Positions 29,084 through 56,260 of a stretch of 64,000 nt of DNA are shown here, piece after piece. The translations under genes were made by a program, and so were the position numbers. The notes under the pieces were generated by a model. It did no database searches and was not told where the DNA came from. It saw only the letters and a program-made list of their open reading frames with translations. How positions within the stretch are numbered: position 1 is the stretch's first letter; each line of letters opens with the position of its first letter. This DNA comes from a candidate division FCPU426 bacterium. GTDB lineage: Bacteria > Oederibacteriota > JAAXVQ01 > JAUVAV01. The stretch lies in assembly GCA_040756875.1 (NCBI GenBank), contig JBFLYH010000002.1:831078-895077 (forward strand). The letters are read 5' to 3'.

Positions 29084-29154
29084 ATTACCCCGCGATTAAT
29101 CGCGGGATTTTCAATATCATGCTCCCTTATCCCCGCCCTGAAAGGCGGGATTTC
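29081..29154. mobile_element. Miniature IS200/IS605-type palindromic element (two end hairpins, no ORF)
   Basis: CCCGCGATTAATCGCGGG (29089-29106) and CCCGCC-CTGAAA-GGCGGG (29132-29149), each followed by ATTT. Confidence 0.55.
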
Positions 29155-29196
29155 TAAAAAGCGAAAAGGTATGAACAGGCAAAAGGAGGAGCGAAG

Positions 29197-29721
29197 ATGA
29201 AAACAGCGGATCTGAAGGGCACTTTGGTCCGGGTGGCAGAGCAAATGGTGCTTGCCGCCACTACGGCGCCCAAAGGGCGGGGCCTGATGTTCCTGGAAGC
29301 AGCGATCATGGAGCGCGACGACATTCTCCGCCTGGCTGGCGAGATGGAGAAAATCGGAAACGAACAGAACGCGGCCGCTTTTACAAGGGACGCCGGTAAT
29401 TTGCGCGAGCATGTCCAGGTGGCGGTATTGCTGGGCACGCGCTTTCAAACCCTGGGCCTCAAATACTGCGGCTTGTGCGGTTTCGTCAACTGCGCGGACA
29501 ACGAAGCCCACAGCGGCATTTGCGTCTTCAATCCCGGCGATTTGGGCATTGCCCTTGGCTCGGCGGTTTCCGTGGCCGCCCAAGCCCACGTGGACAACCG
29601 CATTATGTACACCATGGGTATGGCTGCGCTTTCCCTGCAGTTGTTGGGGCCAGAGGTGCGGCTGGCTTTTGGGATTCCCTTAGCCGCCACCCACAAGAAC
29701 CCGTTTTTCGACCGCAAGTGA
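29197..29721 (+). CDS. DUF2148 ferredoxin-domain-containing protein
   Basis: AATTAPKGRG; CGLCGFVNC; DLGIALGSAVSVA…DNRIMYTMG…KNPFFDR. Confidence 0.9.
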   Translation: MKTADLKGTLVRVAEQMVLAATTAPKGRGLMFLEAAIMERDDILRLAGEMEKIGNEQNAAAFTRDAGNLREHVQVAVLLGTRFQTLGLKYCGLCGFVNCADNEAHSGICVFNPGDLGIALGSAVSVAAQAHVDNRIMYTMGMAALSLQLLGPEVRLAFGIPLAATHKNPFFDRK

Positions 29722-29846
29722 AAAGGCCGCGCGGACTCGCGGGCGGCGGGGTCTAAAGAACACAGCGTATTACCGGCCGACCCGGGGACGAGCCGGCGGT
29801 CAGAACCCGCCAGCGGGCGGATAAAAACCAGAAAGGAGCAAGTGCC

Positions 29847-30056
29847 ATGAAGAAGAACATGGGAACTGCGGATCGGGTCATTCGCACGTTGTTGGCCATT
29901 GTAATAGGAGTGCTGTATTTTACCAATGTGGTCGGCGGCACGCTGGGATTGGTGCTGTTGATCTTGGCCGTTGTGTTTCTGCTGACCAGCCTGTTTAGTT
30001 TTTGCCCGTTATACGCGCTGTTCGGCATCAGCACCTGCCCGGCGCCGAAGTCCTGA
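29847..30056 (+). CDS. DUF2892 (YgaP-like) small membrane protein
   Basis: MKKNMGTADRVIR…FCPLYALFGISTC; AAGGAG RBS. Confidence 0.92.
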   Translation: MKKNMGTADRVIRTLLAIVIGVLYFTNVVGGTLGLVLLILAVVFLLTSLFSFCPLYALFGISTCPAPKS

Positions 30057-30228
30057 CCGCCAGAGCGGCCAGCCCCACGGCCGGAGCGCGAGCAAACCGC
30101 TTGCGCTCCAGCTTTTTTCTGCCCGCCCAAAAAACCGTTGACGCGCCGCTTTTTTCCGGCAAAGATGGAAAACGCATTCACCCGCGCGCAAACTCAGCTG
30201 AACCCGTTGCCAGCCAAGGAGGCCATCG

Positions 30229-31593
30229 ATGCCCGCTAAATGCCAGCCTGCCACGCCTGCAATTCCGCCCCGAGAGGAAGGACTGTCCCTGGGCTTGCGC
30301 CTGTTTGTGATCGCGTTTTTGGCGGCGGCTCTGCTGATCCCATCGTTTCTCGTCAACCTGCTCGTGGACGAGCGCAACCGCCGCAAAGAGCAGGTGGTGT
30401 ACGAAGTGGCGGACCAGTGGTCCGGCGGTGGACAAATCTTGACCGCCCCGGTGCTGACGCTGCCTTATCGCTATGATTATCAGGACGAGAAGGGGCAGGC
30501 CCAGCATGAAGTCCGTTACGCCCACTTTCTGCCCGACAAGCTCTGGATCCAGGGGAAAATGGCGCCGGAAATCAGGTACCGCGGCATCTATCGCGTCGCG
30601 CTGTACCAGGCGGAATTGGTGGTCAGCGGACGCTTCTCCCGGCCGGATGTGGCGGCGCTCAACCTGGATCCGAACCGGGTTTTATGGAGGGACGCGTTCC
30701 TCACCCTGGGCTTGGCGAACACCAAAGGCCTGCAGGAGCAGGTTTACCTGACCTGGAACCAGAGCCCCATCCAAGCCGAACCCGGCGTGCTGTGCAAGGA
30801 CGTGGTGGAAGCGGGCATTACCGTCAGAGTGCCGGTCACGCCCGGCCCGGACGCGTACGACTTTATGTTTCCTCTCAAGCACAGCGGGCATGATTACCTG
30901 TCTTTCGTGCCGCTGGGAAAAATCACCGAGGTCAAGCTGGAGGCGCCCTGGGGCGATCCCAGCTTCATCGGCGCCTTTTTGCCGGACGAACGCCAAATCC
31001 AGCCCAACCGCTTCGCCGCCCGCTGGCAGGTGATCGACCTGAACCGCAATTTTCCCCAGCAGTGGCTCGGTTCCGGACAGCAGGTGGGAGCGGCCAGCTT
31101 CGGTGTGCGCTTGTTCCAGCCTGTGGACCACTACCAAAAGACCACCCGCACCACCAAATACGCGGTCATGTTTATCGGGCTGACCTTCCTGGCGCTGTTT
31201 CTGCTCGATGTGCTGGGTCGCGCCGGCCAGCGCCAAGTCCATCCGGTCCAATACCTGCTCATCGGCATGGCCCTGGTGGTTTTCTATGTCCTGCTGTTGT
31301 CGCTCTCCGAGCACATCGGGTTCGGCTGGGCCTACCTGGCGGCGAGCGCGGGCATCATAGCGCAAATTGCGCTGTATACCAAGAGCGTGCTGGCCAATGG
31401 GCGCCAGACCGGCCTGATCGGAATCATCCTGGCCGTGTTGTACGCCTACCTGTATATTGTTCTGCAGCTGGAGGATTACGCCCTGTTGATCGGCAGCCTC
31501 AGTCTGTTTGCCGTGATCGGGGTCGTCATGTATCTGACGCGGAAAGTGGATTGGTCCAGCCTGGGCAAAACCACGGTTACGCTCAAGCCGTAA
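30229..31593 (+). CDS. creD: Inner membrane protein CreD
   Basis: EIRYRGIY; PSFIGAFLP; SFGVRLFQPVDHYQKTTRTTKY; VHPVQYLLIG; LLLSLSEHIGF; MYLTRKVDW. Confidence 0.95.
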   Translation: MPAKCQPATPAIPPREEGLSLGLRLFVIAFLAAALLIPSFLVNLLVDERNRRKEQVVYEVADQWSGGGQILTAPVLTLPYRYDYQDEKGQAQHEVRYAHFLPDKLWIQGKMAPEIRYRGIYRVALYQAELVVSGRFSRPDVAALNLDPNRVLWRDAFLTLGLANTKGLQEQVYLTWNQSPIQAEPGVLCKDVVEAGITVRVPVTPGPDAYDFMFPLKHSGHDYLSFVPLGKITEVKLEAPWGDPSFIGAFLPDERQIQPNRFAARWQVIDLNRNFPQQWLGSGQQVGAASFGVRLFQPVDHYQKTTRTTKYAVMFIGLTFLALFLLDVLGRAGQRQVHPVQYLLIGMALVVFYVLLLSLSEHIGFGWAYLAASAGIIAQIALYTKSVLANGRQTGLIGIILAVLYAYLYIVLQLEDYALLIGSLSLFAVIGVVMYLTRKVDWSSLGKTTVTLKP

Positions 31594-31769: not shown

Positions 31770-33092
31770 ATGGCAAAATTAGGCATTTATATTTCCATAT
31801 CTCTTTCCTTCGTCCTTCCCTTGGCAACGGGTACAATCGTCAACGCCTCGATGCCGGCAAATGGTTATGAATATTGGTTTGACGATTTTGAAGGCATGCC
31901 CGGCGACCAACCTTCCAAATGGCAGGACCGCACTCAAAATCCGGCGTTTAGTTCGGAAATAACCTACGACAGCATTTCGTCCTTTGCCGTGGTTTCTCCC
32001 ACGGCGGATACGATCGAGCAGTTTAAAATCATACGCTCGGAGAATATCACCTGCGATACGACGTTCTATGACACGCTGGAGATCCGTGTGCCGGATATTT
32101 ATTATCCTGCAGCCACGCAGTGGACGATCGGGTTGCACGAAGGCGGATATGCAAATTATTTCAGTCTGCACAAACCGAGCGGGGCGACCGGGACGTTTGC
32201 CTTTGATTTTTTGCGCGATCTCGGATGGAGCGGGATAAAGACGTTTTATATCGAAGCCAGGGTCACGGCCGATCCCAGTGATTATTTCAAAATGGATTAT
32301 GTCCGTGTCTTTCATAATGCGACCGACAAAGTATATTTATGGAGGGAAGAATTCAACGGAGAAATCGCCCTGGCCTGCAAAAACTGGTGGGATGAAAACG
32401 AAGACAGCACGCTGAATGCCACCATTAGCCCGGATCCCACGCAAACGTACGCCCAAATCCAAATTGTCGGTCCTGAAATATTCGGAAAAGTAATAACACC
32501 GGGCGTGTATTGGAATCCTTCCAAATACAGCCGGGTATCGCTGGGGGTGGTTTCGATTTCTCCCAACACCGAGTGTACGGTGGAAGTGATCGATTTGATC
32601 ACCTATCAACATGCCACCCTGGGAACCATCACCCAGGAAGGGACATACGACTTCAATGTTTTCGAGGCGCCGGGCTGGAAATGGACCCAGGAAGAATTGC
32701 TCGCGATCCAGGTTTGGGTCAGCGCGGATCAGAGCGGGAAAAACTGCCTGATCGACTACATCCGCATTTATTCGTTCAAGGAGACCACGCCCACTCCCAC
32801 CCCCGATATAACGCCGTACTTTCCAGAGGGCGGATATGCCAGGCCGAATCCCTTCCTGCCCACCAGGGGGCAAAAAGCGTCTTTTAATTTCCGCCTCCCT
32901 CAGGCGGGTGCGGCTTACACCATCCGTATTTTCAATACCCGTGGCCGGCTGGTGCGGACGCTGGGGACGTCCTCGCGGCCGGAATGGGACGGCAGGGACG
33001 AAATGGGAAATATTTGCGAGGGCGGAATTTATTTTTATCAGATCGAGTCAGGCGGGTGGCGCATCAATGGACAGGTGGTACTGATTAAATGA
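31770..33092 (+). CDS. Secreted protein with two tandem jelly-roll/CBM-like repeats, PT linker and FlgD-Ig/T9SS-type CTD
   Basis: Signal peptide; repeats WFDDFEG…MDYVRVF and WREEFNG…IDYIRIY; TPTPTP; PNPF…IFNTRGRLVRTL…WDGRDEMG…GIYFYQI…VVLIK. Confidence 0.8.
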   Translation: MAKLGIYISISLSFVLPLATGTIVNASMPANGYEYWFDDFEGMPGDQPSKWQDRTQNPAFSSEITYDSISSFAVVSPTADTIEQFKIIRSENITCDTTFYDTLEIRVPDIYYPAATQWTIGLHEGGYANYFSLHKPSGATGTFAFDFLRDLGWSGIKTFYIEARVTADPSDYFKMDYVRVFHNATDKVYLWREEFNGEIALACKNWWDENEDSTLNATISPDPTQTYAQIQIVGPEIFGKVITPGVYWNPSKYSRVSLGVVSISPNTECTVEVIDLITYQHATLGTITQEGTYDFNVFEAPGWKWTQEELLAIQVWVSADQSGKNCLIDYIRIYSFKETTPTPTPDITPYFPEGGYARPNPFLPTRGQKASFNFRLPQAGAAYTIRIFNTRGRLVRTLGTSSRPEWDGRDEMGNICEGGIYFYQIESGGWRINGQVVLIK

Positions 33093-35275
33093 GGCGGCGG
33101 ATGAAAACGGAGAGCCGGTTCGTCTTTCGGTGTATCGCAGCCGGCGCCCGGCGGATCGGCACGGCGGCCCTTTTGCTGGCTTGGGCGGGTTCAGCCTTTG
33201 CCTATTTCCAGGATGCGGTGGATGGCGTGCGGCCCGCGGGCATGGGCGAAGCCTTTACCGGCGTGGCTGACGATGTCAACGCCATCCTGTTCAATCCCGC
33301 GGGGCTGGCGCAACTCCGGCAGATCGAAATCAATGGCATGTATTCCGATTTGTTTTCAGGTTTGCATACGCGGCTGTATAACGGGCAATTCGACCATGTC
33401 GGCTATAATTATCTTTCCGTGGCCGTGCCCATCGCCCCCTCGTTAGGGACCGTGGCCGCAGGCTGGGCGCAACTTCATTCGGTGTTTTATAAGGAAAACA
33501 CGTTTATTTTATCGTTCGGCCGCAGCATCTGGGCGCCTTACACCATGGCACTGGGAATCGAAGTCAGCGCCGGCGTCAATCTTAAAGGCTTGCACTGGCA
33601 AGTGGAACCCAACGAATATACCACCAATCCAGATTACTTTCCTTTCGGTGAAAAATACAAAGCGGCGTTTACCGCTGACGCTGGAGTGCTGGCGGCAGTG
33701 GGAGAAACCCTGCGGGTGGGAGCGAGCGTCGATAACATCATTCCCGCCGATGTAGGCTTGGCGGTCCATGAGCAGGTGCCCGTGGTTGTCAGGGCGGGGG
33801 GGAGTTATCGTTGGCCGTGGCGCTGCTGGTCCATGGACTCTTTATTGACGGCGGTGGAAGTGACGGCACGCAATCGGATTTACATACCCAAGGCCGGTGT
33901 CGAATCCTGGTGGTTCAACGAACGTCTGGGAGTCCGGGCGGGGATTCATACCGAAGGGGTAACCGCCGGATTGAGCATCCGCGAGCGGATACCCGAATCC
34001 CCCTTGGGCATTCAGCTGGACTATGCCTTCGCCTATCCTTTCTATGTCGCGGACACCCTGGGGTCCCATCGCGTCGGTTTTCTACTGAGGTGGGATCCGG
34101 CCCCCGTTCTCCCGCCGCCATCGCAATCACCGCTACAGCTGCCCGACGTCTACTTGATTCCCAAAATGCAACTGGCAACGGCGCTCGTGCAAGCGATTAA
34201 CGATGCATCTCAGACCGCCCAGGACCTAGCGGATCGAGCGGAACAGGTGGCCACGGAAACCAGGACGCTGGCCTCCCCCGAAGCCGCCAGCAGAGCGGCC
34301 GCTGAAACCGCCAAACTTACCGAGGCCGCGCAGCAGGTTCGGACCCTTGCCGAGCAGGCGGCGGCACTGGCCAGTCGCATGGCAAAGCTGCGCCAGTTGG
34401 CGGAGGCGGAAGCCGTTTTGAATGAATTGCAAATGATTGAGCAAACAGCCAGCCGCAGGACAACGGAATTAGGCAGGACGCTGGACGAGGTTTACACCGC
34501 GCGTTATTTTGTACCCGAAAAAGACCGAAATACCATTGTCGTCGGCATACAAACCGAAATTTTTTCGGATTTCGGGCCGCGGGAGCAAATCGACCCGAAG
34601 CTGATGATATTGAGAACATATCTTGAAGCGGAAACCGGGATGAAGATCGAATTTCGCGAATACAATATTGACAATCTTAAAAACGATTTCATTCATGGTT
34701 ATATCGATGTTTTGGCCGCCTATTCAGCGGTGTTGCAACCCTATGTGGAATATCAATCGCTTAAGCCGATTGCGACCATTCAGACCAAAGGCCAAACCAG
34801 CCAACCCTGCTGTTTGTTTGCGGCCAATGACCAACCGTTCGCCCGGCCCGAAGATTTGAAAGACAAACGGTTGGGATATTTCCACTCGGAAATCCTTCCG
34901 CACATCAAGGAATATTTTTATCCCGCGAGTGGGCTTTATAACAATCTTCATTATTTTAGAAACACCTTTAAATTCAAAAACGGTCCGGATGCCTTGGGTG
35001 CACTGCAAATGAAAGGCGTGGATGCCATCGTGGGGTTCGCTTATATGCTGAAAATAGCGGACAATCTCAATGCGGAATATCCCATTGGCATTAAATGCAT
35101 TGCGAAATCAAAGCTGATCCCCAATCAACCGCTCTATTACCGCCCGTCGAGAAATCCGGTGAAACAGCAGCAAATGAATCTGTTGGCGGATGCCCTGTTG
35201 CGTTTTCACGAGAATCCCGCGGCGGAGTCTTTCTTGAATTACTTCGGAATCGACCGCTTTGTGCCGGTCCAGTAA
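33089..35275 (+). CDS. PorV-family barrel fused via an Ala/Glu-rich coiled coil to a PhnD/SsuA-like substrate-binding domain
   Basis: GVRPAGMGEAFTGVADDVNAILFNPAGLA; barrel ends DYAFAYP…LGSHRVGFLLRW; coiled coil; YLEAETGMKIEF, DLKDKRLGY, KGVDAIVG, SKLIPNQP, FGIDRFVP. Confidence 0.78.
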   Translation: MRRRMKTESRFVFRCIAAGARRIGTAALLLAWAGSAFAYFQDAVDGVRPAGMGEAFTGVADDVNAILFNPAGLAQLRQIEINGMYSDLFSGLHTRLYNGQFDHVGYNYLSVAVPIAPSLGTVAAGWAQLHSVFYKENTFILSFGRSIWAPYTMALGIEVSAGVNLKGLHWQVEPNEYTTNPDYFPFGEKYKAAFTADAGVLAAVGETLRVGASVDNIIPADVGLAVHEQVPVVVRAGGSYRWPWRCWSMDSLLTAVEVTARNRIYIPKAGVESWWFNERLGVRAGIHTEGVTAGLSIRERIPESPLGIQLDYAFAYPFYVADTLGSHRVGFLLRWDPAPVLPPPSQSPLQLPDVYLIPKMQLATALVQAINDASQTAQDLADRAEQVATETRTLASPEAASRAAAETAKLTEAAQQVRTLAEQAAALASRMAKLRQLAEAEAVLNELQMIEQTASRRTTELGRTLDEVYTARYFVPEKDRNTIVVGIQTEIFSDFGPREQIDPKLMILRTYLEAETGMKIEFREYNIDNLKNDFIHGYIDVLAAYSAVLQPYVEYQSLKPIATIQTKGQTSQPCCLFAANDQPFARPEDLKDKRLGYFHSEILPHIKEYFYPASGLYNNLHYFRNTFKFKNGPDALGALQMKGVDAIVGFAYMLKIADNLNAEYPIGIKCIAKSKLIPNQPLYYRPSRNPVKQQQMNLLADALLRFHENPAAESFLNYFGIDRFVPVQ

Positions 35276-35287
35276 AAGGATGAAGGA

Positions 35288-36565
35288 ATGAGTGCGAGCA
35301 TCATGGTTAGAAAGCATTGGCCGGTGATCGTCGGCGGAGTCATCCTAGGCATGACCTTGTCCGCCGTGGGTGTCATATGGATGAATATCAGGGATTTCGA
35401 GCGTCAGCGTAATCGCGAACACTTTGATCTGGCGCAGAACATCGCCCGGACGTCCATGGTGTTCATTAACAACTTGCAGTACGATTATTTCCATCAAATC
35501 ATCAGACTGTTGACCCAGATCTCCTTTATTCCCTACATGGATGTCAATCTCGAAGGCAAGACCGTCCTGCGCAGCGGCTTGGCGCCGGAGCGGTTTCCGT
35601 CATGGCCGGAACGCGCCGCCGACTCGTGGGTCCATTTGGACGCGAAGCAAAATCTGGTGTTTGTTCAGCAGCCGCTGGAACTGAAAGGCGTCAGGAACGC
35701 GGAATTGCGCATGGTATTTTCGCAGGCCGGATTTCAGCAGTCCAAGCAGATGATCGGATATGCCATTGTTTTAATCCTCGTCCTGTTGAGTCTGACCCTC
35801 TTTTTCATGTCTCTGCTGGCCCGTGCCCACCTGGCTCTGGCCCAGGCGGAGAAAAACAAGTCGGAAATGATCCGCCGCATTGCCCACGACGCCAAACAGG
35901 AATTGACGGTCATTGTCGGAAAAACCGCGGTCAATCTGAGCAGACTGAAAAAAGGCCCCGGCAACGAGCAGTTGGAACGGGATTTGAAGCTGACGCAGGA
36001 GAGCGCCGAGTCCATCGAAAATTATCTGAACAACTTGAACGACCAGAGCAAACTCGCCGCCGGACAGACTGAAATCATTGCCGCGGACATCGATATTGTC
36101 AAAGTCATCAGAAACGTTTTGGAAAGCCACGCCGAAACCGTGGCGCAGTACGGTTTGAAATTCATTTTTGAACCGGCCGCCGCCCCTTGCCGCGCCTGGG
36201 CTGATCCGCACGCCGTCAAACGGGTCCTGGTCAACCTGATCCACAATGCCATCAAGTATTCAAGCCCCGGTAGCGTGATCGAGATCAAAGTCGAAACCAA
36301 CGGCTTATGGCAGAAATTATTCGTCCGCGACCAGGGCGCGGGCATTGCCCCGGAAAACTGGGAAAAAATCTTTGAACCGTATGTTCAAATCGATCCCAAA
36401 GGCAAAGGCATGGGGCTTGGCTTGACGAATGCCAGGCAATTGATCCGGCGTTTGGGAGGCGAACTGAAAGTGATCGCGAGCCAAAAGGGCAGGGGAACGA
36501 CTTTTGCATTCACGCTTCCCATCCACGAGATGTCAACCCCGGTCACGGAAGGAAGGGCGACATGA
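35288..36565 (+). CDS. Membrane sensor histidine kinase
   Basis: Two TM helices around a periplasmic domain; IAHDAKQELT H-box; NLIHNAIKYS; DQGAGI; IFEPY; GMGLGL. Confidence 0.93.
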   Translation: MSASIMVRKHWPVIVGGVILGMTLSAVGVIWMNIRDFERQRNREHFDLAQNIARTSMVFINNLQYDYFHQIIRLLTQISFIPYMDVNLEGKTVLRSGLAPERFPSWPERAADSWVHLDAKQNLVFVQQPLELKGVRNAELRMVFSQAGFQQSKQMIGYAIVLILVLLSLTLFFMSLLARAHLALAQAEKNKSEMIRRIAHDAKQELTVIVGKTAVNLSRLKKGPGNEQLERDLKLTQESAESIENYLNNLNDQSKLAAGQTEIIAADIDIVKVIRNVLESHAETVAQYGLKFIFEPAAAPCRAWADPHAVKRVLVNLIHNAIKYSSPGSVIEIKVETNGLWQKLFVRDQGAGIAPENWEKIFEPYVQIDPKGKGMGLGLTNARQLIRRLGGELKVIASQKGRGTTFAFTLPIHEMSTPVTEGRAT

Positions 36566-37959
36566 CCAAAATACTGGTATTGGACGACGAAGTCCTGGTT
36601 TTGGAAACCATCACCGGCATCCTGCAGGGCGAAGGCTACACAGTGGAATCGAGCCGGCAGACGGAAGGGGTCCTGCAACGCATCGCCGACTTTAATCCCG
36701 ATCTGGTCACTTTGGATCTTCGCTTTGGCGACGATGAAATGGCGGGCGTCAAAGTGATCCAGCAGATCCGGGGGAAGTATTCGCGGGAGCAGCTTCCCAT
36801 CATTGTGATCAGCGGCCGCGGAGACGCCGTGAAGCTTAAGCAGCTTCTCAAACAGGGGTTGGATGACTACATCTACAAACCGTTCAAATCGGAAGAGTTG
36901 CTGGAAAAAGTTCAAACCAGCTTGGCCAGACGCCAGCCCAGCCGTGAAAACGGGCGCGAGCGGATTGACACCGAGATGATCGGCGGTCAAGCGATCATGG
37001 ACCTGATGCTCAAACTGGAGCGCCGGGCGAAAGCGCAATTGGACACTCTGATTTTGGGGGAAAACGGAACCGGCAAGGACATGTTTGCGAAACTGTATCA
37101 CCAACTCAGCCCGAGGCAGGACCAGCCGTTTTACCACATCAACTGTCCGGCCATCCCGCCCACTTTATTCGAGGCGGAAATCTTCGGCCGGGAAAAGGGG
37201 GCCTATTCCGGCGCCGTGTTCAGCCGCGGAAAAATCGAAGAGGCGGCCGGGGGCATCGCCTTTTTCAATGAGATTGGGGAACTGAATCTGGACGTGCAGG
37301 CCAAATTGCTGCATTTGTTCGACACGGAAAAGAAGACTTTTTGCCGCGTGGGCGGCAATCAACCGATTGAACTGGATGTCATCGTCATTGCGGCCACCAA
37401 CCGCAATCTGGAGCAAATGGTCAAGGAGGGTCGCTTTCGGCAGGATTTGTTTTATCGCCTTAAAACCGAACCCATCGTGCTTCCTCCGCTCAGGCAGCGG
37501 CGCGAAGACATACCCCTGCTGATCGATTACTTCATCAAAAAATACAACCAGCGCTTCAGAAAAAACATACAGCCTGCCGCACCCTCCTTGGCGGCACGAA
37601 TTTCGAAACTGGAGCTGTCCGGAAACGTCAGGGAACTGGAGAAAGGGCTGGAAGTGGCAGTGGGCAATTGCCGCGGCAATAATTTGGCCTGGGAGGATTT
37701 TGCCGATTTTTTTCCATCCCACCCCGATACGCTGCCACAACCGGGCGGCGAGAAAAGCATTTACGAATTGGACTATCTGGCCATGCGCGAGTATGTCAAA
37801 GGCAAGACCGAAGAGTTGGAGAAGGATTACCTCCAATACCATTTGGCTCAAAACGGGTTTAATCCCACCCAAACTGCCGTGAAGCTGAACATGAAAAACA
37901 CCAAGTACATTTACGAGCGTATGCGTTTGCTCAACATTAAGTTGAATGAGTATAACTGA
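36562..37959 (+). CDS. NtrC-family sigma54-dependent response regulator (REC-AAA+-HTH)
   Basis: ILVLDDE/LVTLD receiver; GENGTGKD; GAYSGA; AATNRNL; FRQDLFYRL; GNVREL. Confidence 0.93.
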   Translation: MTKILVLDDEVLVLETITGILQGEGYTVESSRQTEGVLQRIADFNPDLVTLDLRFGDDEMAGVKVIQQIRGKYSREQLPIIVISGRGDAVKLKQLLKQGLDDYIYKPFKSEELLEKVQTSLARRQPSRENGRERIDTEMIGGQAIMDLMLKLERRAKAQLDTLILGENGTGKDMFAKLYHQLSPRQDQPFYHINCPAIPPTLFEAEIFGREKGAYSGAVFSRGKIEEAAGGIAFFNEIGELNLDVQAKLLHLFDTEKKTFCRVGGNQPIELDVIVIAATNRNLEQMVKEGRFRQDLFYRLKTEPIVLPPLRQRREDIPLLIDYFIKKYNQRFRKNIQPAAPSLAARISKLELSGNVRELEKGLEVAVGNCRGNNLAWEDFADFFPSHPDTLPQPGGEKSIYELDYLAMREYVKGKTEELEKDYLQYHLAQNGFNPTQTAVKLNMKNTKYIYERMRLLNIKLNEYN

Positions 37960-38227
37960 CTATAAAGATATTGAAGTAGTAAGGCATATCCGTACCGAAG
38001 TCAGGCCTCCCCTTACTTGATTCCCCTATTTCCTAGCAGTCGGCAGACCATGGGAGATCCCGGCGCCGGAGGCGCATCTTGAGTGGCAGTGGGTATGTTT
38101 TATGGGAAAGAAAAAACAGGACAAAACCTAAGCAAATAAAACGTTTTTGCAACCATCGCGAACGTTAGTTTCCCTGGCCTCCTTGGTGGCTTTTTTTGGC
38201 AAGCATACCAGAGGAAGGAATAAAACC

Positions 38228-38243
38228 TGGCACGGTTTCTGCT
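38228..38243 (+). promoter_or_regulatory. sigma54 -24/-12 promoter upstream of the ECF sigma gene
   Basis: TGGCACGGTTTCTGCT: GG and GC separated by 10 bp; near-consensus TGGCACG-N4-TTGCW; directly downstream of a sigma54 activator gene. Confidence 0.75.
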
Positions 38244-38291
38244 CTAACATAATAGCGGGCAAAAGCAGCTTTACCACGCCAGGGGGGAAGA

Positions 38292-38867
38292 ATGAAAAAC
38301 CTTGAACCGCTGAACGACGAAAAATTACTGCTCATGCTTCGCCGGGGATCAAAGGATGCCGGAGAAGTTATTTTTAAACGGTATTACCCGGCGGTGCTGG
38401 GGCTGAGCCGGAAATACCTGTGTTGCCAACATGACGCCGAAGACATTGCCCAGGAAGTTTTCTTACGCGCCTTGGCCATGGATAAAATAAGGAAGTTCAG
38501 GGGAGAAAGCAGCCTACGTACCTGGCTTTTTAGGATCGCCATCAATTTGTGCTATTCCAAGCACCGTAAACACCGGGAAAAGTTGCTGCTCAACGACGAA
38601 AAGCATCCGGAACCGGTTATTCCCTCGGGAGGCCCTGACCCCGAGGAAGAGGCCATGCGCCTGGAAGCGAAGCATCAACTGCGGGTGGCGCTGTGGAAGC
38701 TTCCGAAAAAGTATCAAACCGTGATCGCGCTTTTTTATCAGGACCAACGGACGTACAGCGACATCGCGAAAACCCTTCGGCAGTCCGTGGGAAGTATCGG
38801 CGTGTGCTTGAAACGCGGCCGGGCCATCTTGAACCGGCGATTGGCCTACCGGGGCGTATGGGTTTAA
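38292..38867 (+). CDS. ECF-family RNA polymerase sigma-70 factor
   Basis: DAEDIAQEVFL; FRGESSLRTWLFRIAIN region 2; region 4 LPKKYQTVIAL…TYSDIA. Confidence 0.92.
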   Translation: MKNLEPLNDEKLLLMLRRGSKDAGEVIFKRYYPAVLGLSRKYLCCQHDAEDIAQEVFLRALAMDKIRKFRGESSLRTWLFRIAINLCYSKHRKHREKLLLNDEKHPEPVIPSGGPDPEEEAMRLEAKHQLRVALWKLPKKYQTVIALFYQDQRTYSDIAKTLRQSVGSIGVCLKRGRAILNRRLAYRGVWV

Positions 38868-38992: not shown

Positions 38993-39538
38993 ATGGAAAG
39001 CAGGCAGTGGGTAGTAGGCACGATGGCCGTATTGGGTTTGTTGGTTGCAGCCGGATGCGCGCAACCGCCGGAGCAGGAAAAGGGCGCCGCGCAGACAGCC
39101 ATGCAGGCCGCACTCCAAGGCGGGGCCGAAACCTATGCGATGGCGGCTTGGAATGAAGCCAAGACCAAATGGGACGCCGCCGAGCAGCAGATGCAGCAGA
39201 AAGTGTATGCCCAAGCGAAAGTGGCGTACTTGGAAGCCAAAGCCGCTTTTGATTCATCTCTGGGCCAGGTCGAAGCCGGCAAGCAGAGCATGATAGCCGC
39301 CAACCAAACGGCATTGGCCGAGATGGAAAAGAGTTGGAGTGAAGCCACGGCGTTGTCTAAAAAAGCCATGAAAAAAATGTCGGTTGAATTAAAACAAGCC
39401 TGGACCGCGGAATCCAAAATGGTGGATGACGCGTTGAAAACGGCCAAGGACAACCTGGCGGCTCCGGCCGAAATTAAGCAAAAATTGGATGAAGTCAAAG
39501 CGTTGGTCGATAAATGGCTGGGTGAATTAAAAAAGTAA
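38993..39538 (+). CDS. Alpha-helical lipoprotein (DUF4398-like)
   Basis: Lipobox VAAG-C; Ala/Lys/Glu-rich helices, GAETYA motif; GGAGG RBS. Confidence 0.75.
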   Translation: MESRQWVVGTMAVLGLLVAAGCAQPPEQEKGAAQTAMQAALQGGAETYAMAAWNEAKTKWDAAEQQMQQKVYAQAKVAYLEAKAAFDSSLGQVEAGKQSMIAANQTALAEMEKSWSEATALSKKAMKKMSVELKQAWTAESKMVDDALKTAKDNLAAPAEIKQKLDEVKALVDKWLGELKK

Positions 39539-39556
39539 TCCTTTCCTGGTTTTCCG

Positions 39557-39590
39557 AACGCCCCGGGACGCTGTCCCGGGGCGTTTTTAT
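39557..39590 (+). terminator. Rho-independent terminator
   Basis: 13-bp perfect stem AACGCCCCGGGAC/GTCCCGGGGCGTT with 3-nt loop, followed by T-rich tract. Confidence 0.85.
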
Positions 39591-39901
39591 TTATAAACGT
39601 ATATAATAAAAGAAGCCTGCTTTTCCGGTTCGTCTTATCCGCAGTCGTCCCCAGTCGACAGCTCGTTTGGGAATTTGGTCTGGAGGCATAAAAAAGTCTT
39701 TCAATTCCTCCCGGGCGTTATATAGTAAAGCCGGGCGAAGGCCTGCGGCGCAGGGCAAACCGCCGCGGACCCGAGGCGGCTTTCGGCCAAAGAAACCCTG
39801 GACGCGTTCGTTCATCCCATCAAAAAGGAGTGCCTTCGCCGGGGTGATCTGGCGAGCGCATTTCCAATCCAAGCAACAGCCGTTTGCCAGGAGGAACCGA
39901 C

Positions 39902-40948
39902 ATGAAAAAAAACAATCTGGTTTTAACGGTACTAGTGCTGGGCATGCTGGTTTTTCTTTCGGTGGGATGCGGACCCGGGCAAAAAACGGGGCAAAGCCAG
40001 GTCCTTTATCATTGCACCATGCACCCTCAAATCATCCGGGACCATCCCGGGAAATGTCCGATCTGTGGCATGGATTTAGTTCCATTCACACCTCCGGCCA
40101 CCCCCGAAGCGACGAAGCCCGGCCTTTCGTCCGAAGGAAGCGCGATGACCATGCCGCAACAGGACCAGGCGGTCGAGGTGGATGTCCGCCGCCAGCAGCT
40201 CATCGGCGTCAAGACGGTCGTAGCTACGCGGCGAACGCTGGAAAAGACCCTGAGGGTGCAGGGAGAAGTGGCGCACGATCCGGAGATGTACCAGGCCCAG
40301 GCCGAATATCTCCGCGGCCTGGCAGCCGGTGGCGAAGGGGGGTTGCAGAGCGCCAGCCGTTTGAAACTGGAGCACATGGGCATGAGTCCTGATTTGATCC
40401 GCCGCCTGGAACGGCGCGGGCGGCCGCAGCGCAACCTGTTCGTCCGGGACCAGGACCCGGTATTTTGGATCTATGTTTATTTCTACGAGGCCGACCTGCC
40501 GTTTCTTTCGCTAGGGCAGCCGGTTGCCGTCCGGGTGCCCAGGCTGGGCGGACAACATGACGGCGTTTTGAGGGGTTTGCAGCCGTACGTGGAGCCGGCC
40601 GCCCGCACAATCCGGGGCATTGTGGAAGTGCGCGATCCTGAATTGCGGTTGTATGCCGGCTTGTATGCGGATGCCGAGGTTCGCCTGACGCTGCCCGAAG
40701 CAGTGGTCATCCCAGCCTCGGCCGTGCTCGATTCCGGCACCCGGCAGGTCGTGTTTGAGCTGACCGGGCCGGGCCGGTTTGAACCGCGGGAAGTGCAGAT
40801 CGGCGCCGTGGCGGGCGAATTCGCCCAGGTGCTAACCGGAGTGGAAGCCGGCGCCAGCGTGGTGACGGACGGGAACTTCATGCTCGACGCCGAAAGCCGC
40901 CTGCAGTCGGTGGTGAAAGAGACGGCTCCGGCCGGCCACCAGCACTAG
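39902..40948 (+). CDS. cusB: CusB-like RND periplasmic adaptor with heavy-metal-binding domain
   Basis: Lipobox SVG-C; YHCTMHP…CPICGMDL; IPASAVLDSG…VVTDGNFMLDAES. Confidence 0.85.
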   Translation: MKKNNLVLTVLVLGMLVFLSVGCGPGQKTGQSQVLYHCTMHPQIIRDHPGKCPICGMDLVPFTPPATPEATKPGLSSEGSAMTMPQQDQAVEVDVRRQQLIGVKTVVATRRTLEKTLRVQGEVAHDPEMYQAQAEYLRGLAAGGEGGLQSASRLKLEHMGMSPDLIRRLERRGRPQRNLFVRDQDPVFWIYVYFYEADLPFLSLGQPVAVRVPRLGGQHDGVLRGLQPYVEPAARTIRGIVEVRDPELRLYAGLYADAEVRLTLPEAVVIPASAVLDSGTRQVVFELTGPGRFEPREVQIGAVAGEFAQVLTGVEAGASVVTDGNFMLDAESRLQSVVKETAPAGHQH

Positions 40949-41023
40949 CGGACCCGCTCGCGGCGCCTTCCCGGACGGTCCGGATCGGCGCCGGAATCTT
41001 TGCTGCCAGGGAGAGTCGTGCCT

Positions 41024-44000
41024 ATGCTGTCCAAGTTAATCGCCTGGTCCATCCGCAACCGCATCCTGGTCACCCTGCTGACGATCCTGGTCATCGGCTG
41101 GGGGGCTTATGCCCTGGTAAAAACACCGGTGGACGCCATCCCGGATTTATCCGACGTGCAAGTCATCCTCTACACCCAGTATCCCGGGCAATCACCCCGC
41201 GTCGTGGAAGACCAGATCACCTATCCCCTGACCACGGCCATGGTCTCAGTGCCGGGTGCCCAGGCCGTACGGGGGTATTCTTTCTTTGGCTACTCGCTGG
41301 TCTACATTATTTTTAAGGACGGCACGGATCTGTATTGGGCCCGGAGCCGCGTCCTGGAGTACATCAATTACGCCCAGCAGCGCCTGCCTGCCGGCGTGCT
41401 GCCGATCCTGGGGCCGGACGCCTCGGGGGTGGGCTGGGTGTACCAGTATGCGCTGGTCTCGGACCAACGCCCCCTGCATGAGCTGCGCTCGCTGCAGGAT
41501 TGGTATTTGAAATACGAACTGGCGAGCGTTCCCGGCGTGGCCGAAGCCGCCAGCCTCGGCGGCTTCGTCAAACAGTACCAAGTGACCGTCGATCCCAGCC
41601 GCCTGCAGGCGCTGGGCCTCACGCTGGGAGACGTGGAGGCGGCCATCAAAGCCGGCAACCAGGACACGGGCGGCGAAGTGGTGGTGCTGGGCGAGCGCGA
41701 GTACATGATCCGGGGGCTGGGATACCTCAAATCCATCGGCGATTTGGAGCAATTGCCGGTGGCCTGGCGCCCCAACCAGCAGGGCGGCACCCTGCCGGTG
41801 TATCTCAAGGACGTGGCAGACATCCGGCTCGGGCCGGAAATGCGCCGCGGCGTGGCCGAACTCGACGGCCAGGGCGAAACCGTGGGCGGGATCGTGGTCA
41901 TGCGGTTCGGCGAAAACGCCCGGGACGTCATCCGCCGCGTGAAGCGCAAGCTGGAAGAGCTCAAGGCCGGGCTGCCGGCGGACGTGCGGATCGTGCCGGT
42001 GTATGACCGGTCCCGGCTGATCACGCGGGCCATCGACAATCTGCGTGGCAAGCTCTTCGAGGAAATGCTGATCGTGGCCCTGGTCTGCCTGATGTTTCTG
42101 TTTCACGCCCGGAGCGCGCTGGTGGCGGTGTTCACGCTGCCGACGGCCATCCTGATGTCTTTCATCGTCATGCGCAGCCAGGGCATCAATGCCAACATCA
42201 TGTCCCTGGGCGGGATCGCCATTGCCATCGGCGCCATGGTCGACGCCGCCATCGTCATGATCGAGAACGCCCACAAACACCTGGAACGGGAAGAGGCGCT
42301 GCCGGCCCGGCGGCGCCGGCCGCACTGGCAGGTCATCCTGGAGGCTTCGCAGGAGGTGGGGCCGGCCCTGTTCTGGTCCCTGCTGGTGATTACCGTCTCG
42401 TTCGCGCCCATTTTCGCGCTGGAGGCGCAGGAAGGGAGATTGTTCCGGCCGCTGGCGTTCACCAAGACTTACGCCATGGCGGCCGCGGCGCTTTTGGCCG
42501 TGACCATCGTGCCCGTGCTGATGGGGTTCTTCATCCGCGGGCGCGTTCCGTCCGAAGCCAGCAATCCCGTGAACCGCTGGCTGTTGCAGCGCTACCACCC
42601 GCTGGTGCAGTGGGTCCTGCGCCATGCCCGGGGCGTGCTGCTGGCCGCCGCGGGGGTCGTGGCTTTGGGCGCGGTGCCGCTGCTGCGCCTGGGCACGGAA
42701 TTCATGCCGCCCCTCTTCGAAGGCGACCTCCTGTATATGCCTACCACCCTGCCCGGATTGTCCATTGCCGCGGCCCGCGACTTGCTGCAGCGGACCGACC
42801 GCCTGATACGCTCTTTTCCCGAAGTGGAGCGCGTGTTCGGTAAAATCGGGCGGGCCGAAACCGCCACCGACCCCGCCGGGCTGGACATGATCGAGACCAC
42901 GATCCAGCTCAAGCCCCGCAAGGCCTGGCGCCGCGGCCTGACGGAAGCGAAGCTGATCGCGGAGCTGGACCGCACGGTGAAGCTGCCGGGGCTGACCAAC
43001 GCCTGGACCATGCCGATCAAGGCGCGCACGGACATGCTGGCCACGGGGATCAAAACGCCGGTGGGAATCAAGCTGTCAGGGCCGGACCTGGGCGAATTGC
43101 AGCGCCTGGGGACCCAGATCGAGGCGGTTCTGCGCCGCGTGCCGGGAACGGGATCGGCCTTTGCCGAGCGGGCCATGGGGGGATATTATCTGGACATCGC
43201 CATCGACCGGCCGGCCGCGGCCCGCTACGGCGTCAATGTGGAGGACCTGAACCGGGTGATTCAAATGGCCCTGGGCGGCATGAACGTCACCACCACGGTG
43301 GAAGGGCTGGAACGGTATCCGGTCAACGTGCGCTACAGCCGTGAATTGCGGGACAGCGTGGAATCCATCCGGCGCGTGCTGGTGGCCACGCGGACCGGCG
43401 GGCAAGTGCCCTTGGCGCAAGTGGCGGACATCAAGCTGTCGCCCGGGCCCATGGTCATCCGCACTGAAAACTCACGGCCGAACGCCTGGGTCTTCGTGGA
43501 CGTGCGGGGCGTGGATCTGGGGACGTACATCCACCGCGCTCAGACGGCCATCGGGAAAGCGCTGCGACTGCCGGAGGGGTACACCCTGACTTGGAGCGGC
43601 GAATTCGAATACCTGCAGCGGCTGCACCGCCGGCTGCTGCTGGTGGTTCCCCTGACGCTCTTCATCATCGTGCTGATCCTATATCTCAACACCCGCTCCC
43701 TGGCCAAGACCGCCATCGTACTGCTGGCCGTGCCGTTTTCCCTGGTCGGCGCCCTGTGGTTTGTCTACGCGTTGGGATACAATTTAAGCCTGGCGGTCTG
43801 GGTGGGCCTGATTGCGCTCGCCGGCCTGGACGCGGAAACCGGCGTGGTGATGCTGTTGTATCTGGACCACGCTTACGAGGCGGCGCGCAGCCGCGGCCGT
43901 ATGAACGGGCTTTCCGATTTGCGCGTTGCGATCGACCAGGGGGCGGTCCAGCGTGTGCGCCCCAAAGTCATGACCGCGGCCGTCATCATTGCAGGCTTGC

Positions 44001-44185
44001 TGCCGATTTTCTGGGGCGCGGAGGCCGGGTCGGACCTGATGCGGCGGATTGCGGCTCCCATGATGGGCGGGGTGGTGACCTCGGTGCTGATGGAGCTGGC
44101 CGTGTATCCGGCGATTTATTATTATTGGCGCGGGTGGCGCTGGCTGCGGCCCGGACGCCGCGCGGAAAAACCCTTGCCAGCATAG
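41024..44185 (+). CDS. cusA: CusA/CzcA-family heavy-metal RND efflux pump
   Basis: DAIPDLSDVQV; NIMSLGGIAIAIGAMVDAAIVMIEN; EFMPPLFEGDLLYMP; DMLATGIKTPVGIK; RVRPKVMT. Confidence 0.95.
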   Translation: MLSKLIAWSIRNRILVTLLTILVIGWGAYALVKTPVDAIPDLSDVQVILYTQYPGQSPRVVEDQITYPLTTAMVSVPGAQAVRGYSFFGYSLVYIIFKDGTDLYWARSRVLEYINYAQQRLPAGVLPILGPDASGVGWVYQYALVSDQRPLHELRSLQDWYLKYELASVPGVAEAASLGGFVKQYQVTVDPSRLQALGLTLGDVEAAIKAGNQDTGGEVVVLGEREYMIRGLGYLKSIGDLEQLPVAWRPNQQGGTLPVYLKDVADIRLGPEMRRGVAELDGQGETVGGIVVMRFGENARDVIRRVKRKLEELKAGLPADVRIVPVYDRSRLITRAIDNLRGKLFEEMLIVALVCLMFLFHARSALVAVFTLPTAILMSFIVMRSQGINANIMSLGGIAIAIGAMVDAAIVMIENAHKHLEREEALPARRRRPHWQVILEASQEVGPALFWSLLVITVSFAPIFALEAQEGRLFRPLAFTKTYAMAAAALLAVTIVPVLMGFFIRGRVPSEASNPVNRWLLQRYHPLVQWVLRHARGVLLAAAGVVALGAVPLLRLGTEFMPPLFEGDLLYMPTTLPGLSIAAARDLLQRTDRLIRSFPEVERVFGKIGRAETATDPAGLDMIETTIQLKPRKAWRRGLTEAKLIAELDRTVKLPGLTNAWTMPIKARTDMLATGIKTPVGIKLSGPDLGELQRLGTQIEAVLRRVPGTGSAFAERAMGGYYLDIAIDRPAAARYGVNVEDLNRVIQMALGGMNVTTTVEGLERYPVNVRYSRELRDSVESIRRVLVATRTGGQVPLAQVADIKLSPGPMVIRTENSRPNAWVFVDVRGVDLGTYIHRAQTAIGKALRLPEGYTLTWSGEFEYLQRLHRRLLLVVPLTLFIIVLILYLNTRSLAKTAIVLLAVPFSLVGALWFVYALGYNLSLAVWVGLIALAGLDAETGVVMLLYLDHAYEAARSRGRMNGLSDLRVAIDQGAVQRVRPKVMTAAVIIAGLLPIFWGAEAGSDLMRRIAAPMMGGVVTSVLMELAVYPAIYYYWRGWRWLRPGRRAEKPLPA

Positions 44186-54956: not shown

Positions 54957-56260
54957 ACAGGCAGGCGGCAGGCGGGGGAACGGTGGTGCTGGGCGCCGGG
55001 CTGGCCGGCTTGTCCGCGGCCCATCACCTGGGCCGCAGCTGCCGGGTGTTTGAAGCCGCCGGCCGGCCGGGCGGCTTGTGCGCCACGGACCATGTCCAAG
55101 GCTACGACTTTGACCTGGCCGGACACCTGCTGCACCTGCGCGAGCGCTCCAGCCGGGAATTCGTCGAGCGCCTTCTGCCCGGACGCTGGCAGCACATCCG
55201 GCGCGACGCCAGGATCCATGTGCTGGACCGGGAAGTGCGGTATCCCATCCAGGCCAATGCGTTCGGATTGCCGGCCGACGTGAAAGCCCGGGTGCTGCAA
55301 ACCTATCTTGAGGCCAGAACCCGGCGCGGCCCGGCGCCGGAGAATTTCGCGGAGTGGGCCAGGCAGACCTTTGGATCCGCCCTGGCGGAACTGTTTTTTG
55401 AGCCTTACAACCGCAAGCTTTGGACGGTTCCTCCCCGCGAATTGATGCTGACCTGGATGGGCGCTTATGTGCCCGCGCCCGAGCCGGCGCGCGTGATCCG
55501 CGGCGCCTTCGCGGACATTCCCGAAGGCGGAGGGTACAATGCCCGCTTTTGGTATCCACGGAAAGGCGGCATCGGCGCGCTGCCCCAGGCTTTGGCCAGG
55601 CACGTGCCCGAACTCCGGCTGAACGCCCCGGCCCGCAAAGTGGACTGGCGCCGCCGCCGCGTGGAGATCGCGGGTTTGGGCTGGGTGCCCTGGCAGCGCC
55701 TGGTTTCCACCCTGCCTTTGCCCGCACTGGCGGCCCGCTGCCTTTCCCTGCCCGAAGCCGTCCGGCGCGCCGCCGGAAAGCTGCGGGCCAACTCCGTCCT
55801 CGTGGTCAATCTCGGCGTGCGCCGGGCCCGCCTGCACCCGGCCCACTGGGTCTATTTTCCCGAGAAGCGGTTCTGCTTCTACCGCGTCGGGTTTCCCTCG
55901 AATTACGGGCGCCTGGCGCCCAAGGGCCGCAGCACGCTCTATGCCGAGGTGGCCGTGCCCGCGGGCACGGGGTGGGAGCGCAGGCACCAGGTGGCGCGCC
56001 GCGTGCGGCAGGACCTGGTGCAAGCCGGCATCCTGCGGAACACGGACACCGTGGAAATCGAGCATATGCAATACCTGCGCCACGCCTACGTGATTTACGA
56101 CGAAGCGCACGCCCACGCGCGGAAACAGGTGCTGGATTTTTTCAGGAAGCAGGGGATTTGGAGCATCGGGCGCTGGGGGAACTGGGAATACTCGGCCATG
56201 GAAGACGCGCTGGCGGCCGGCAAACGGGCGGCCGAGGACATCCAGGGGGATTTGGAATAA
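54953..56260 (+). CDS. FAD-dependent oxidoreductase (protoporphyrinogen-oxidase/UDP-galactopyranose-mutase-like)
   Basis: GAGLAGLSAA; GGLC…FDLAGH; PYNRKLW; FWYPRKGG; GRWGNWEY. Confidence 0.85.
   Translation: MNRQAAGGGTVVLGAGLAGLSAAHHLGRSCRVFEAAGRPGGLCATDHVQGYDFDLAGHLLHLRERSSREFVERLLPGRWQHIRRDARIHVLDREVRYPIQANAFGLPADVKARVLQTYLEARTRRGPAPENFAEWARQTFGSALAELFFEPYNRKLWTVPPRELMLTWMGAYVPAPEPARVIRGAFADIPEGGGYNARFWYPRKGGIGALPQALARHVPELRLNAPARKVDWRRRRVEIAGLGWVPWQRLVSTLPLPALAARCLSLPEAVRRAAGKLRANSVLVVNLGVRRARLHPAHWVYFPEKRFCFYRVGFPSNYGRLAPKGRSTLYAEVAVPAGTGWERRHQVARRVRQDLVQAGILRNTDTVEIEHMQYLRHAYVIYDEAHAHARKQVLDFFRKQGIWSIGRWGNWEYSAMEDALAAGKRAAEDIQGDLE

Follow-up and report, generated by a model that had tools for sequence, protein, structure and literature searches.

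A conserved gene cassette combining a PorV-like barrel-binding protein fusion with a kinase, a sigma-54 activator and an ECF sigma factor in uncultured Firestonebacteria relatives

Several described signalling systems share features with a five-gene cassette located at 31770-38867 of a 64,000-nucleotide (nt) stretch of DNA (contig JBFLYH010000002.1; hereafter the window) from an uncultured groundwater bacterium. Its products are a protein with a C-terminal domain (CTD) like those of type IX secretion system (T9SS) cargo (P1), a PorV-like outer-membrane barrel fused to a solute-binding protein (SBP) domain (P2), a histidine kinase (HK), a sigma-54-dependent activator and an extracytoplasmic function (ECF) sigma factor. 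In LuxP-LuxQ and TorT-TorS, a free periplasmic binding protein docks on the periplasmic domain of a kinase and modulates its activity. In the FecA-FecR-FecI, SusC-like/anti-sigma/ECF and RcsF-OMP-IgaA systems, a barrel-linked periplasmic part acts on an inner-membrane sensor and through it on an ECF factor or a phosphorelay; in those systems TonB-dependent transporters or porins serve as the barrels, and an N-terminal extension or a lipoprotein signals to an anti-sigma factor or IgaA. PorX consists of a receiver and a PglZ-type/phosphatase-like effector domain and binds SigP, and the activators HrpR and HrpS are not known to have a receiver domain. In Porphyromonas gingivalis, PorA, a small CTD cargo bound to PorV and to A-lipopolysaccharide (A-LPS), is reported to act upstream of PorY-PorX-SigP, with its CTD binding PorY in the periplasm (PMC12152298). 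For AioX-AioS-AioR, co-transcription of a periplasmic PF12974 protein with the kinase and action of the regulator at an RpoN promoter are reported (PMC5908839; PMC8050422), and transcription of the ECF factor HrpL of Pseudomonas syringae is described as sigma-54-dependent (PMC5263251).

The PorA/PorV-PorY-PorX-SigP cascade resembles the cassette in having a T9SS cargo with its own CTD, located partly on PorV, a kinase and an ECF sigma factor. In P. gingivalis, however, the genes lie apart from one another, PorV has no additional domain and direct binding to the kinase is reported for the CTD, whereas here the genes form one cassette, the barrel is fused to an SBP and it is the SBP that is predicted to touch the kinase. 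In addition, PorX is no sigma-54 activator, whereas the cassette encodes an NtrC-type activator and places its ECF gene under transcriptional control through a sigma-54 promoter. Because its regulator is an NtrC-type AAA+ activator, the cassette resembles PorXY-SigP in outline and is not a member of that system. AioXSR, ArrX and ArxX match the core of the cassette, in which a kinase and a sigma-54 regulator accompany a Phosphonate-bd SBP; AioX, however, is free in the periplasm and an oxidase operon is the output, whereas here the SBP is tethered, the output is an ECF gene and no arsenic genes lie nearby. HrpR/HrpS-sigma-54-HrpL likewise has an ECF factor controlled transcriptionally by sigma-54 and enhancer-binding proteins (EBPs), followed by a secretion system and its substrates, but the secretion system is of type III, and neither an outer-membrane protein nor an SBP provides input. 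The Fec, SusC and Rcs systems differ from the cassette in having no histidine kinase with an SBP co-sensor, and LuxP-LuxQ and TorT-TorS use other SBP families and sensor folds and, unlike P2, no outer-membrane tether. The first-pass annotation of this DNA had known of no described system with this layout. The Por, Aio and Hrp systems are close precedents for it; our literature search found no covalent barrel-SBP fusion and no sigma-54-to-ECF wiring beside T9SS-type cargo. In a review from 2021 on binding proteins in signal transduction, the main text contains neither 'outer membrane' nor 'fused', and none of the literature listed in our search on type IX secretion and PorV names Elusimicrobia. 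Overall, the cassette probably encodes a multi-component signalling pathway that is conserved within one order of an uncultured phylum.

The five genes lie on the forward strand and encode P1 (31770-33092, 440 aa), P2 (33089-35275, 728 aa), the sensor histidine kinase (35288-36565, 425 aa), the sigma-54-dependent response regulator (36562-37959, 465 aa) and the ECF-type sigma factor (38292-38867, 191 aa). Read directly from the sequence, ATGA overlaps couple P1 to P2 and the kinase to the activator, and the 12-nt gap between P2 and the kinase gene contains an AGGA. The GC content is 0.47-0.59 over 31.5-40 kb, compared to 0.62-0.69 in the flanking DNA. Gene positions, overlaps, gap and low-GC block are all as the first-pass annotation had described them. 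Recent horizontal arrival of the low-GC block was considered and rejected, as a relative of the same genus (locus L013) has the cassette between flanking open reading frames (ORFs) similar in size and order, the ORFs having been compared by size and order.

To what extent these genes belong together was assessed in 99 species genomes of the phylum, searched with the SBP domain. The domain was present in 11 of the 99, all in two families, and its 25 matches (19 of them in open frames of 587 aa or more) comprised 16 barrel-SBP fusions, 3 jelly-roll-SBP fusions and 6 short frames, three of the latter coming after a gene for a TolC-like outer-membrane efflux protein (OEP). The 16 barrel-SBP loci were found in 10 genomes, which belong to one order of one candidate phylum. 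Adjacent to the barrel-SBP gene, a kinase gene is present in 15 of the 16 loci (exception L120), an activator gene in 14 (exceptions L115 and L120) and a P1-type CTD gene in 14, with L109 and L118, both on short contigs, showing none; 9 of the 16 have an ECF gene, and L108 stops at a contig edge. The gene order varies from CTD-fusion-HK-EBP to CTD-HK-EBP-fusion, and the L107 cassette starts with its ECF gene. As the gene set is kept while its order varies, selection appears to act on the set rather than to leave mere synteny, indicating a functional unit. The proposal that these genes form one cassette was thus supported by the neighbourhood comparison, with kinase, activator and CTD genes co-occurring with the fusion in 14-15 of 16 loci, and the cassette is most likely a single pathway ending in the ECF sigma factor.

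Three further proteins, from two genomes, consist of a signal peptide, 2-3 P1-type jelly-rolls and the SBP, without barrel or CTD (L110:2875-5283, L111:221-2674 and L117:9020-10780; -), and in L117 this gene is followed by HK-EBP-ECF. Such fusions indicate a functional link between the jelly-roll module and the SBP. Because they carry a Sec signal peptide only, and neither barrel nor CTD, these proteins look, from their domain content, like a wholly periplasmic version of the sensor.

P2 matched PorV_fam (NF033709) over residues 46-243 with 40.6 bits (E 2.2e-10; cut-off 90), and since 31 of the 44 PorV_fam matches of the genome singly exceed this cut-off and P2 does not, it is a divergent relative of the family. 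The AlphaFold model of P2, built from a 48-row alignment (predicted local distance difference test, pLDDT, 91.3; predicted template modelling score, pTM, 0.54), shows in order a signal helix, the 14 strands of a FadL-like barrel, a disordered stretch (343-352), three helices of ~37 residues and a two-lobed alpha/beta domain. For the barrel part (residues ~39-336; 33203-34096, +), the best solved-fold match by Foldseek was 8gl6_F, which is PorV (E 1.4e-9, TM score 0.59) and was the sole barrel among the top matches; compared to the sequences of solved structures, the same part gave no match at E <= 10. The SBP domain (residues 482-728; 34532-35272, +) belongs to Phosphonate-bd (PF12974, E 2.5e-15), which it matched over residues 507-727 with 57 bits (cut-off 27). 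By sequence, ArrX alone was found among solved proteins (E 8e-5), at just ~20% identity, and it also ranked first in Foldseek (E 5.7e-16, TM score 0.74), followed by AioX, PtxB and PhnD, with TM scores of 0.72-0.77 for ArrX and AioX. The three closest orthologs all keep Q572, C574 and C575, which align with a stretch of ArrX containing Y138, the residue mutated in ArrX entry 6x8w; P2 reads Q-A-C-C there, and its pocket residues differ from those of ArrX. The invariant Q-x-C-C of the cleft region (P2 residues 572-575) is encoded at 34802-34813.

In a collection of 5.8 billion proteins, only two other clusters matched P2 over its full length, at 58-59% identity, and a search of 50%-identity representatives returned 2953 proteins at E <= 1e-3. 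Of the proteins compared, 27 have both barrel and SBP, namely P2 under two identifiers, the two full-length clusters and 23 further representatives. Named relatives are labelled Candidatus Firestonebacteria, and more distant barrel matches Elusimicrobia (species-representative genomes). The public gene call for P2 (P0004, 682 aa) begins 46 residues in and so is without a signal peptide; the ATGA-coupled start at 33089 yields a plausible signal sequence ending AFA-YF.

Between barrel and SBP, the model places a helical linker (34154-34504, +) of three helices, 356-394, 397-433 and 437-472, joined by turns of 2-3 residues and resembling a three-helix module more than a long coil. Among the 27 fusion proteins the linker spans 50 to 274 aa, with lengths clustering at ~50-96, ~134-171 and ~265-274 aa; these clusters correspond approximately to zero, one or two units of a three-helix segment of ~117 residues. 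A profile of the three orthologs searched against solved structures matched, for the linker, WzzE only, at a non-significant E of 0.1. The helical connection between barrel and SBP is as first annotated, but not its reading as a periplasm-spanning coiled coil: with three short helices of ~37 residues each, varied lengths and one Ala/Pro-rich relative, a coil of fixed length was rejected. The varying lengths suggest a modular spacer instead.

The kinase comprises a transmembrane helix (TM1), a periplasmic domain of ~120 residues (~34-155), a second transmembrane helix (TM2) and HisKA and HATPase_c domains. Its sensor domain resembles small single-Cache/CHASE8/NtrY_N-type domains, LapD_MoxY_N included, matches that serve as leads only; LapD_MoxY_N we take to be a protein-binding type of sensor domain. 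Complex prediction for SBP residues 478-728 and kinase residues 34-156, with a kinase alignment of 9 rows and three controls, gave a score of 0.63 compared to 0.26 for the best control, with runs agreeing in at least 96% of contacts and a partner pLDDT of at least 87. This mark is attained by 116 of 157 solved complexes and by 2 of 215 mismatched pairs, a calibration that is approximate here, own alignments having been used. In the model, the SBP contact residues 627-643 and 662-666 lie within stretches invariant among the three closest orthologs, and the kinase contact residues 91-96 adjoin G97, which is invariant in all nine kinases. To our knowledge, solved SBP-kinase complexes exist for other SBP classes only (LuxP-LuxQ, TorT-TorS), and for this reason a score drawn from memorised structures seems unlikely. 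The score, a model confidence, supports binding, so that the SBP domain is likely to dock on the periplasmic domain of the kinase, in line with the initial proposal that the binding domain relays to the kinase as in LuxP/LuxQ.

The response regulator contains REC, Sigma54_activat and AAA lid domains (PF00158, 181 bits; PF00072, 76.8 bits; AAA_lid_14, 58 bits), with D52 in the receiver, a Walker A motif GENGTGKD and a C-terminal tail that is helix-turn-helix-like, in which the HTH_8 domain was undetected. Downstream of it, a sigma-54-type promoter (38228-38243, +; TGGCACGGTTTCTGCT) of the GG-N10-GC type (TGGCAC-N5-TTGC; TGGCACGGTTTCTGC) lies at 38228, 64 nt ahead of the ECF ATG. At one mismatch the window holds 2 such sites compared to 7.6 expected, and the 38228 site alone is non-significant; the other one-mismatch site is TGGCGCAGGTATTGC at 56068-56082 (-). 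The significance of the 38228 site lies in its conservation across loci: in 10 of 13 ECF loci, TGGCAY-N5-NTGC[ATC] occurs no more than 300 nt ahead of the ECF gene or of a small ORF that comes before it, as expected from the initial assignment of a sigma-54 promoter to this gene. The remaining three loci show a near-match (TTGAA) in one case and none in two (L105, L117). On both strands of the 3.2-Mb genome a stricter form of the motif has 17 matches, of which 2 precede ECF genes that follow kinase-activator pairs, and rpoN is present in the genome (453 bits). Upstream of the sigma-54 promoters no activator binding sites shared among loci were found; L118 and L113 show tandem 21-nt repeats or palindromes there, and the window just a short palindrome at 38151-38166. 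The ECF protein matches TIGR02937 with 101.2 bits (cut-off 42.9) as well as PF04542 and PF08281, covering regions 2 and 4. No anti-sigma gene was recognised next to the ECF gene, the following gene encoding a lipoprotein. We regard a chain from the kinase through the activator and sigma-54 to the ECF factor as very likely.

P1 consists of a Sec signal peptide, two jelly-rolls (~34-181 and 187-336), a low-confidence linker (345-359) and the T9SS type-A/FlgD_Ig-like CTD (~360-440). Its AlphaFold model (pLDDT 84.7), built from a 27-row alignment of orthologs and paralogous repeats, shows two jelly-roll sandwiches and a CTD sandwich with strands at 384-438. Pfam and NCBIfam signals are C-terminal only and all below the cut-offs (TIGR04183, 19.5 vs 23; FlgD_ig, 25.2 vs 27; CHU_C, 23 vs 27). 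The CTD is a C-terminal beta-sandwich of ~80 aa with PNPF and WDG...G..Y motifs, presumably typical of type A CTDs, and the pattern A.PNPF.P..G...WDGR...G..CE.G.Y..Q...G..VL is kept across 19 aligned sequences. A Cys near residue ~416 (CEGG) is kept in at least 80% of these 19 cassette CTDs. Foldseek returned generic jelly-rolls only (tandem CBM22, reelin, MAM, the Eph ligand-binding domain and a biofilm BSP domain), and glycan-binding families of the protein atlas provide weak leads. The repeats, first annotated as resembling carbohydrate-binding modules, are therefore so at the level of the fold class, but no further.

The conserved part of P1 is its CTD. Against it, 18 CTDs whose genes neighbour those of P2-type barrels in other genomes reach 45-136 bits, 17 of them at least 67 bits, whereas the best other CTD of its own genome scores 37 bits; on these comparisons, the P1 CTD is conserved far beyond the need of a sorting signal. 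Among the cassette CTD proteins the passenger varies. As its gene lies inside the cassette, its CTD is unusually conserved and its jelly-roll module is fused to the SBP in three proteins, P1 probably belongs to the sensor. In the simplest reading, the CTD would link non-covalently to the barrel and so join a variable outer module to the SBP arm. From gene adjacency and the conserved CTD subfamily, we lean towards a docking of P1 on the P2 barrel.

The best paralogues of the kinase, activator and ECF factor of the window are found in two other HK-EBP-ECF triplets of its own genome, each immediately preceding genes for giant CTD proteins that carry P1-type repeats. At C1:1393170-1439538 (L010-L012), the triplet, with the sigma-54 site TGGCATGGCGTTTGCT, is followed by ~40 kb of genes for giant CTD proteins of 827-3163 aa with Kelch, FG-GAP and P1-type jelly-roll repeats. 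Three PorV-like barrels are encoded among them, one of which, a barrel-TPR fusion of 654 aa, is the closest barrel paralogue of P2 in the genome. At C2:353123-370220 (L009), three SurA-like genes, a TolC-like OEP, a free PhnD-like SBP, the kinase and the EBP are followed by a small receiver-like ORF, the ECF gene and the gene for a 2443-aa CTD protein with a P1-type repeat; the free SBP gene overlaps that of the OEP by 14 nt and that of the kinase by 4 nt. The OEP-SBP-HK-EBP layout is also present in two other genomes, continuing through the ECF gene in L124 and ending with the contig after the EBP in L123, and an outer-membrane protein gene beside an SBP gene is, by gene order, a recurring theme. 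As the paralogous modules precede giant CTD proteins, jelly-roll surface proteins are the proposed targets of the ECF factor. To look for an ECF-type target promoter, pairs of a 5-mer and a 4-mer separated by a 14-19-nt spacer were searched in 21 intergenic regions downstream of ECF genes or upstream of the first genes of cassettes; no shared motif was found, the yield being AT-rich noise with any pair in at most 5 of the 21.

PorV_fam has 44 matches in the same 3.2-Mb genome, and CTDs have 46. Of 42 barrel places, at least 13 have a CTD match that ends no more than 600 nt upstream on the same strand, and it looks like a rule of this genome that each cargo has its own PorV-like barrel. Examples of such cargo-barrel pairs are C1:1100072-1101168, C1:632943-634173 and C3:140887-142106. 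Judged from the models for the canonical components, described below, this lineage may sort its cargo with machinery other than the canonical T9SS.

In the mechanism that we propose around the observed parts, their co-inheritance and the conserved sigma-54 promoter, P2 would sit in the outer membrane as a PorV-like barrel, with its linker and AioX/ArrX-type SBP hanging into the periplasm. P1 would be the dedicated partner of this barrel, held by its CTD much as PorA and PorU are on PorV and PorZ is on PorQ, and P1 and P2 together would form the input end. The SBP would dock, as predicted by the complex model, on the small periplasmic domain of the kinase as a co-sensor, comparable to AioX-AioS and LuxP-LuxQ. 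The kinase would then phosphorylate the sigma-54 activator, which would open the 38228 promoter and turn on the ECF sigma gene together with the helical lipoprotein gene. The ECF factor would in turn direct expression of surface-protein genes, which in the paralogous modules are those for giant CTD proteins with the jelly-roll repeat of P1. The CTD-barrel docking, the ECF regulon and the stimulus are the steps that we infer.

Several observations weigh against this mechanism. L120 has neither a kinase nor an activator nearby and L115 has no activator. The P2 barrel scores below the PorV_fam cut-off (40.6 vs 90 bits), the P1 CTD is under the cut-off of all three CTD models, and 7 of the 14 cassette CTD proteins are without the jelly-roll module that the other 7 carry. 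The linker is variable in length (50-274 aa) and, in one close relative, Ala/Pro-rich and not helical. The kinase alignment behind the complex model has just 9 rows, the activator has GAYSGA in place of the canonical GAFTGA loop, and no ECF promoter motif is shared, so that the output regulon is read from gene position only. With regard to sorting, the GldK and GldM models match nothing in the genome, which is 100% complete (a GldM control also matched nowhere), the SprA model yields several weak sub-cut-off segments on one 2149-aa frame, and the PorU model is weak, with 49 bits outside the CTD part.

The mechanism could be read most ambitiously as an outside-in receptor, in which P1, a cargo with glycan-binding-like jelly-rolls, is parked by its CTD on the dedicated barrel, and a ligand or contact at the surface alters this barrel-bound state and, through the SBP arm, the kinase, sigma-54 and the ECF factor, leads to expression of giant adhesin-like proteins. 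We consider this rather unlikely, and it is equally doubtful that the signal truly starts outside the cell and crosses the outer membrane. The first-pass annotation had let it begin outside the outer membrane, a claim that our analysis did not show: the linker contains no conserved rigid coil, and the jelly-roll-SBP relatives appear to be wholly periplasmic. As the linker varies and is Ala/Pro-rich in one close relative, a rigid mechanical relay is disfavoured.

Much the same weight, that is, a rather low one, goes to a plain AioX-type small-molecule sensor, in which the barrel would only tether or localise the SBP or admit the ligand and P1 would be mere cargo. The SBP keeps the two-lobed PhnD/AioX/ArrX fold with a ligand cleft, its nearest solved relatives bind oxyanions, and the invariant Q572, C574 and C575 fall into the segment aligned with that of ArrX Y138. 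Variable and sometimes unstructured linkers would suit a tether, and free SBP-HK-EBP-ECF modules occur without a barrel fusion. A sensor of this kind, however, leaves unexplained why a P1-type gene with an exceptionally conserved CTD lies inside 14 of the 16 cassettes, upstream of the sensor genes, and why three proteins have jelly-rolls joined to the SBP, and a domain scan of the window ORFs found no arsenic or phosphonate metabolism genes around the cassette.

Somewhat less probable again is a PorA-like secretion feedback, in which the CTD of P1 waiting in the periplasm, owing to slow export or an occupied barrel, would bind the SBP arm or the kinase and raise ECF expression, thereby matching sorting capacity or cargo genes to demand. 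It would fit with the CTD, and not the passenger, being the conserved part of the cassette protein and with the resemblance of the kinase sensor to small domains including LapD_MoxY_N, a lead only. A precedent is the reported binding of the PorA CTD to PorY in P. gingivalis, which activates PorX-SigP (PMC12152298). On the other hand, the jelly-roll-SBP fusions have no CTD, the response regulator is a sigma-54 activator and not of the PorX type, and the search with the GldK and GldM models found no canonical T9SS motor or ring genes. Finally, that an ordinary cargo/PorV-like pair merely lies beside an unrelated two-component system, the fusion serving uptake, is very improbable: CTD-then-barrel pairs are indeed common in the genome (at least 13 of 42 barrel places), but in 15 of 16 loci the kinase gene has stayed next to the fusion even though the gene order is rearranged, the SBP-kinase co-fold passes its controls, and no ABC-transporter permease or ATPase was found among 11 window ORFs, with only cassette-type genes searched elsewhere.

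Beyond the ECF gene, the window encodes an all-helical, Ala/Lys/Gln-rich lipoprotein with the lipobox LVAAGC (38993-39538, +), for which no Pfam or NCBIfam family match was found. It is probably co-transcribed with the ECF gene, and in L013 its ortholog starts 21 nt past the ECF gene. A strong intrinsic-terminator-like hairpin of 14 pairs (10 G-C) with a T run (39556-39586, +) closes the unit. The flanks at 26048-31593 and 39884-44185 encode a 1011-aa BatD/TPR/SH3 protein, a DUF2148 ferredoxin-domain protein and CreD, then a CusB-like protein with a heavy-metal-binding domain and a CusA/AcrB-type pump.

If the proposed pathway holds, P2 would be the first PorV-family barrel with an attached signalling domain, and likewise the first periplasmic binding protein covalently tethered to the outer membrane as a kinase co-sensor. 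Relative to PorA-PorXY-SigP as reported, the cassette would provide an independent example, from a distant phylum, of a T9SS cargo or CTD feeding a two-component system and an ECF sigma factor. The physical link within one polypeptide would make sensing of surface or secretion state directly testable with purified domains. The scheme of a kinase, a sigma-54 activator and an ECF factor, with no anti-sigma factor recognised, occurs three times in one genome, before giant surface proteins, and the 44 PorV-like and 46 CTD matches without detected GldK or GldM raise the question of which sorting machinery this lineage uses. The outside-in receptor, if true, would be a form of cell-surface signalling without TonB-dependent transducers or anti-sigma factors. 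The cassette combines two known kinds of control, SBP-assisted two-component sensing and cargo- or barrel-linked ECF regulation, and is so far confined to uncultured relatives of the Firestonebacteria.

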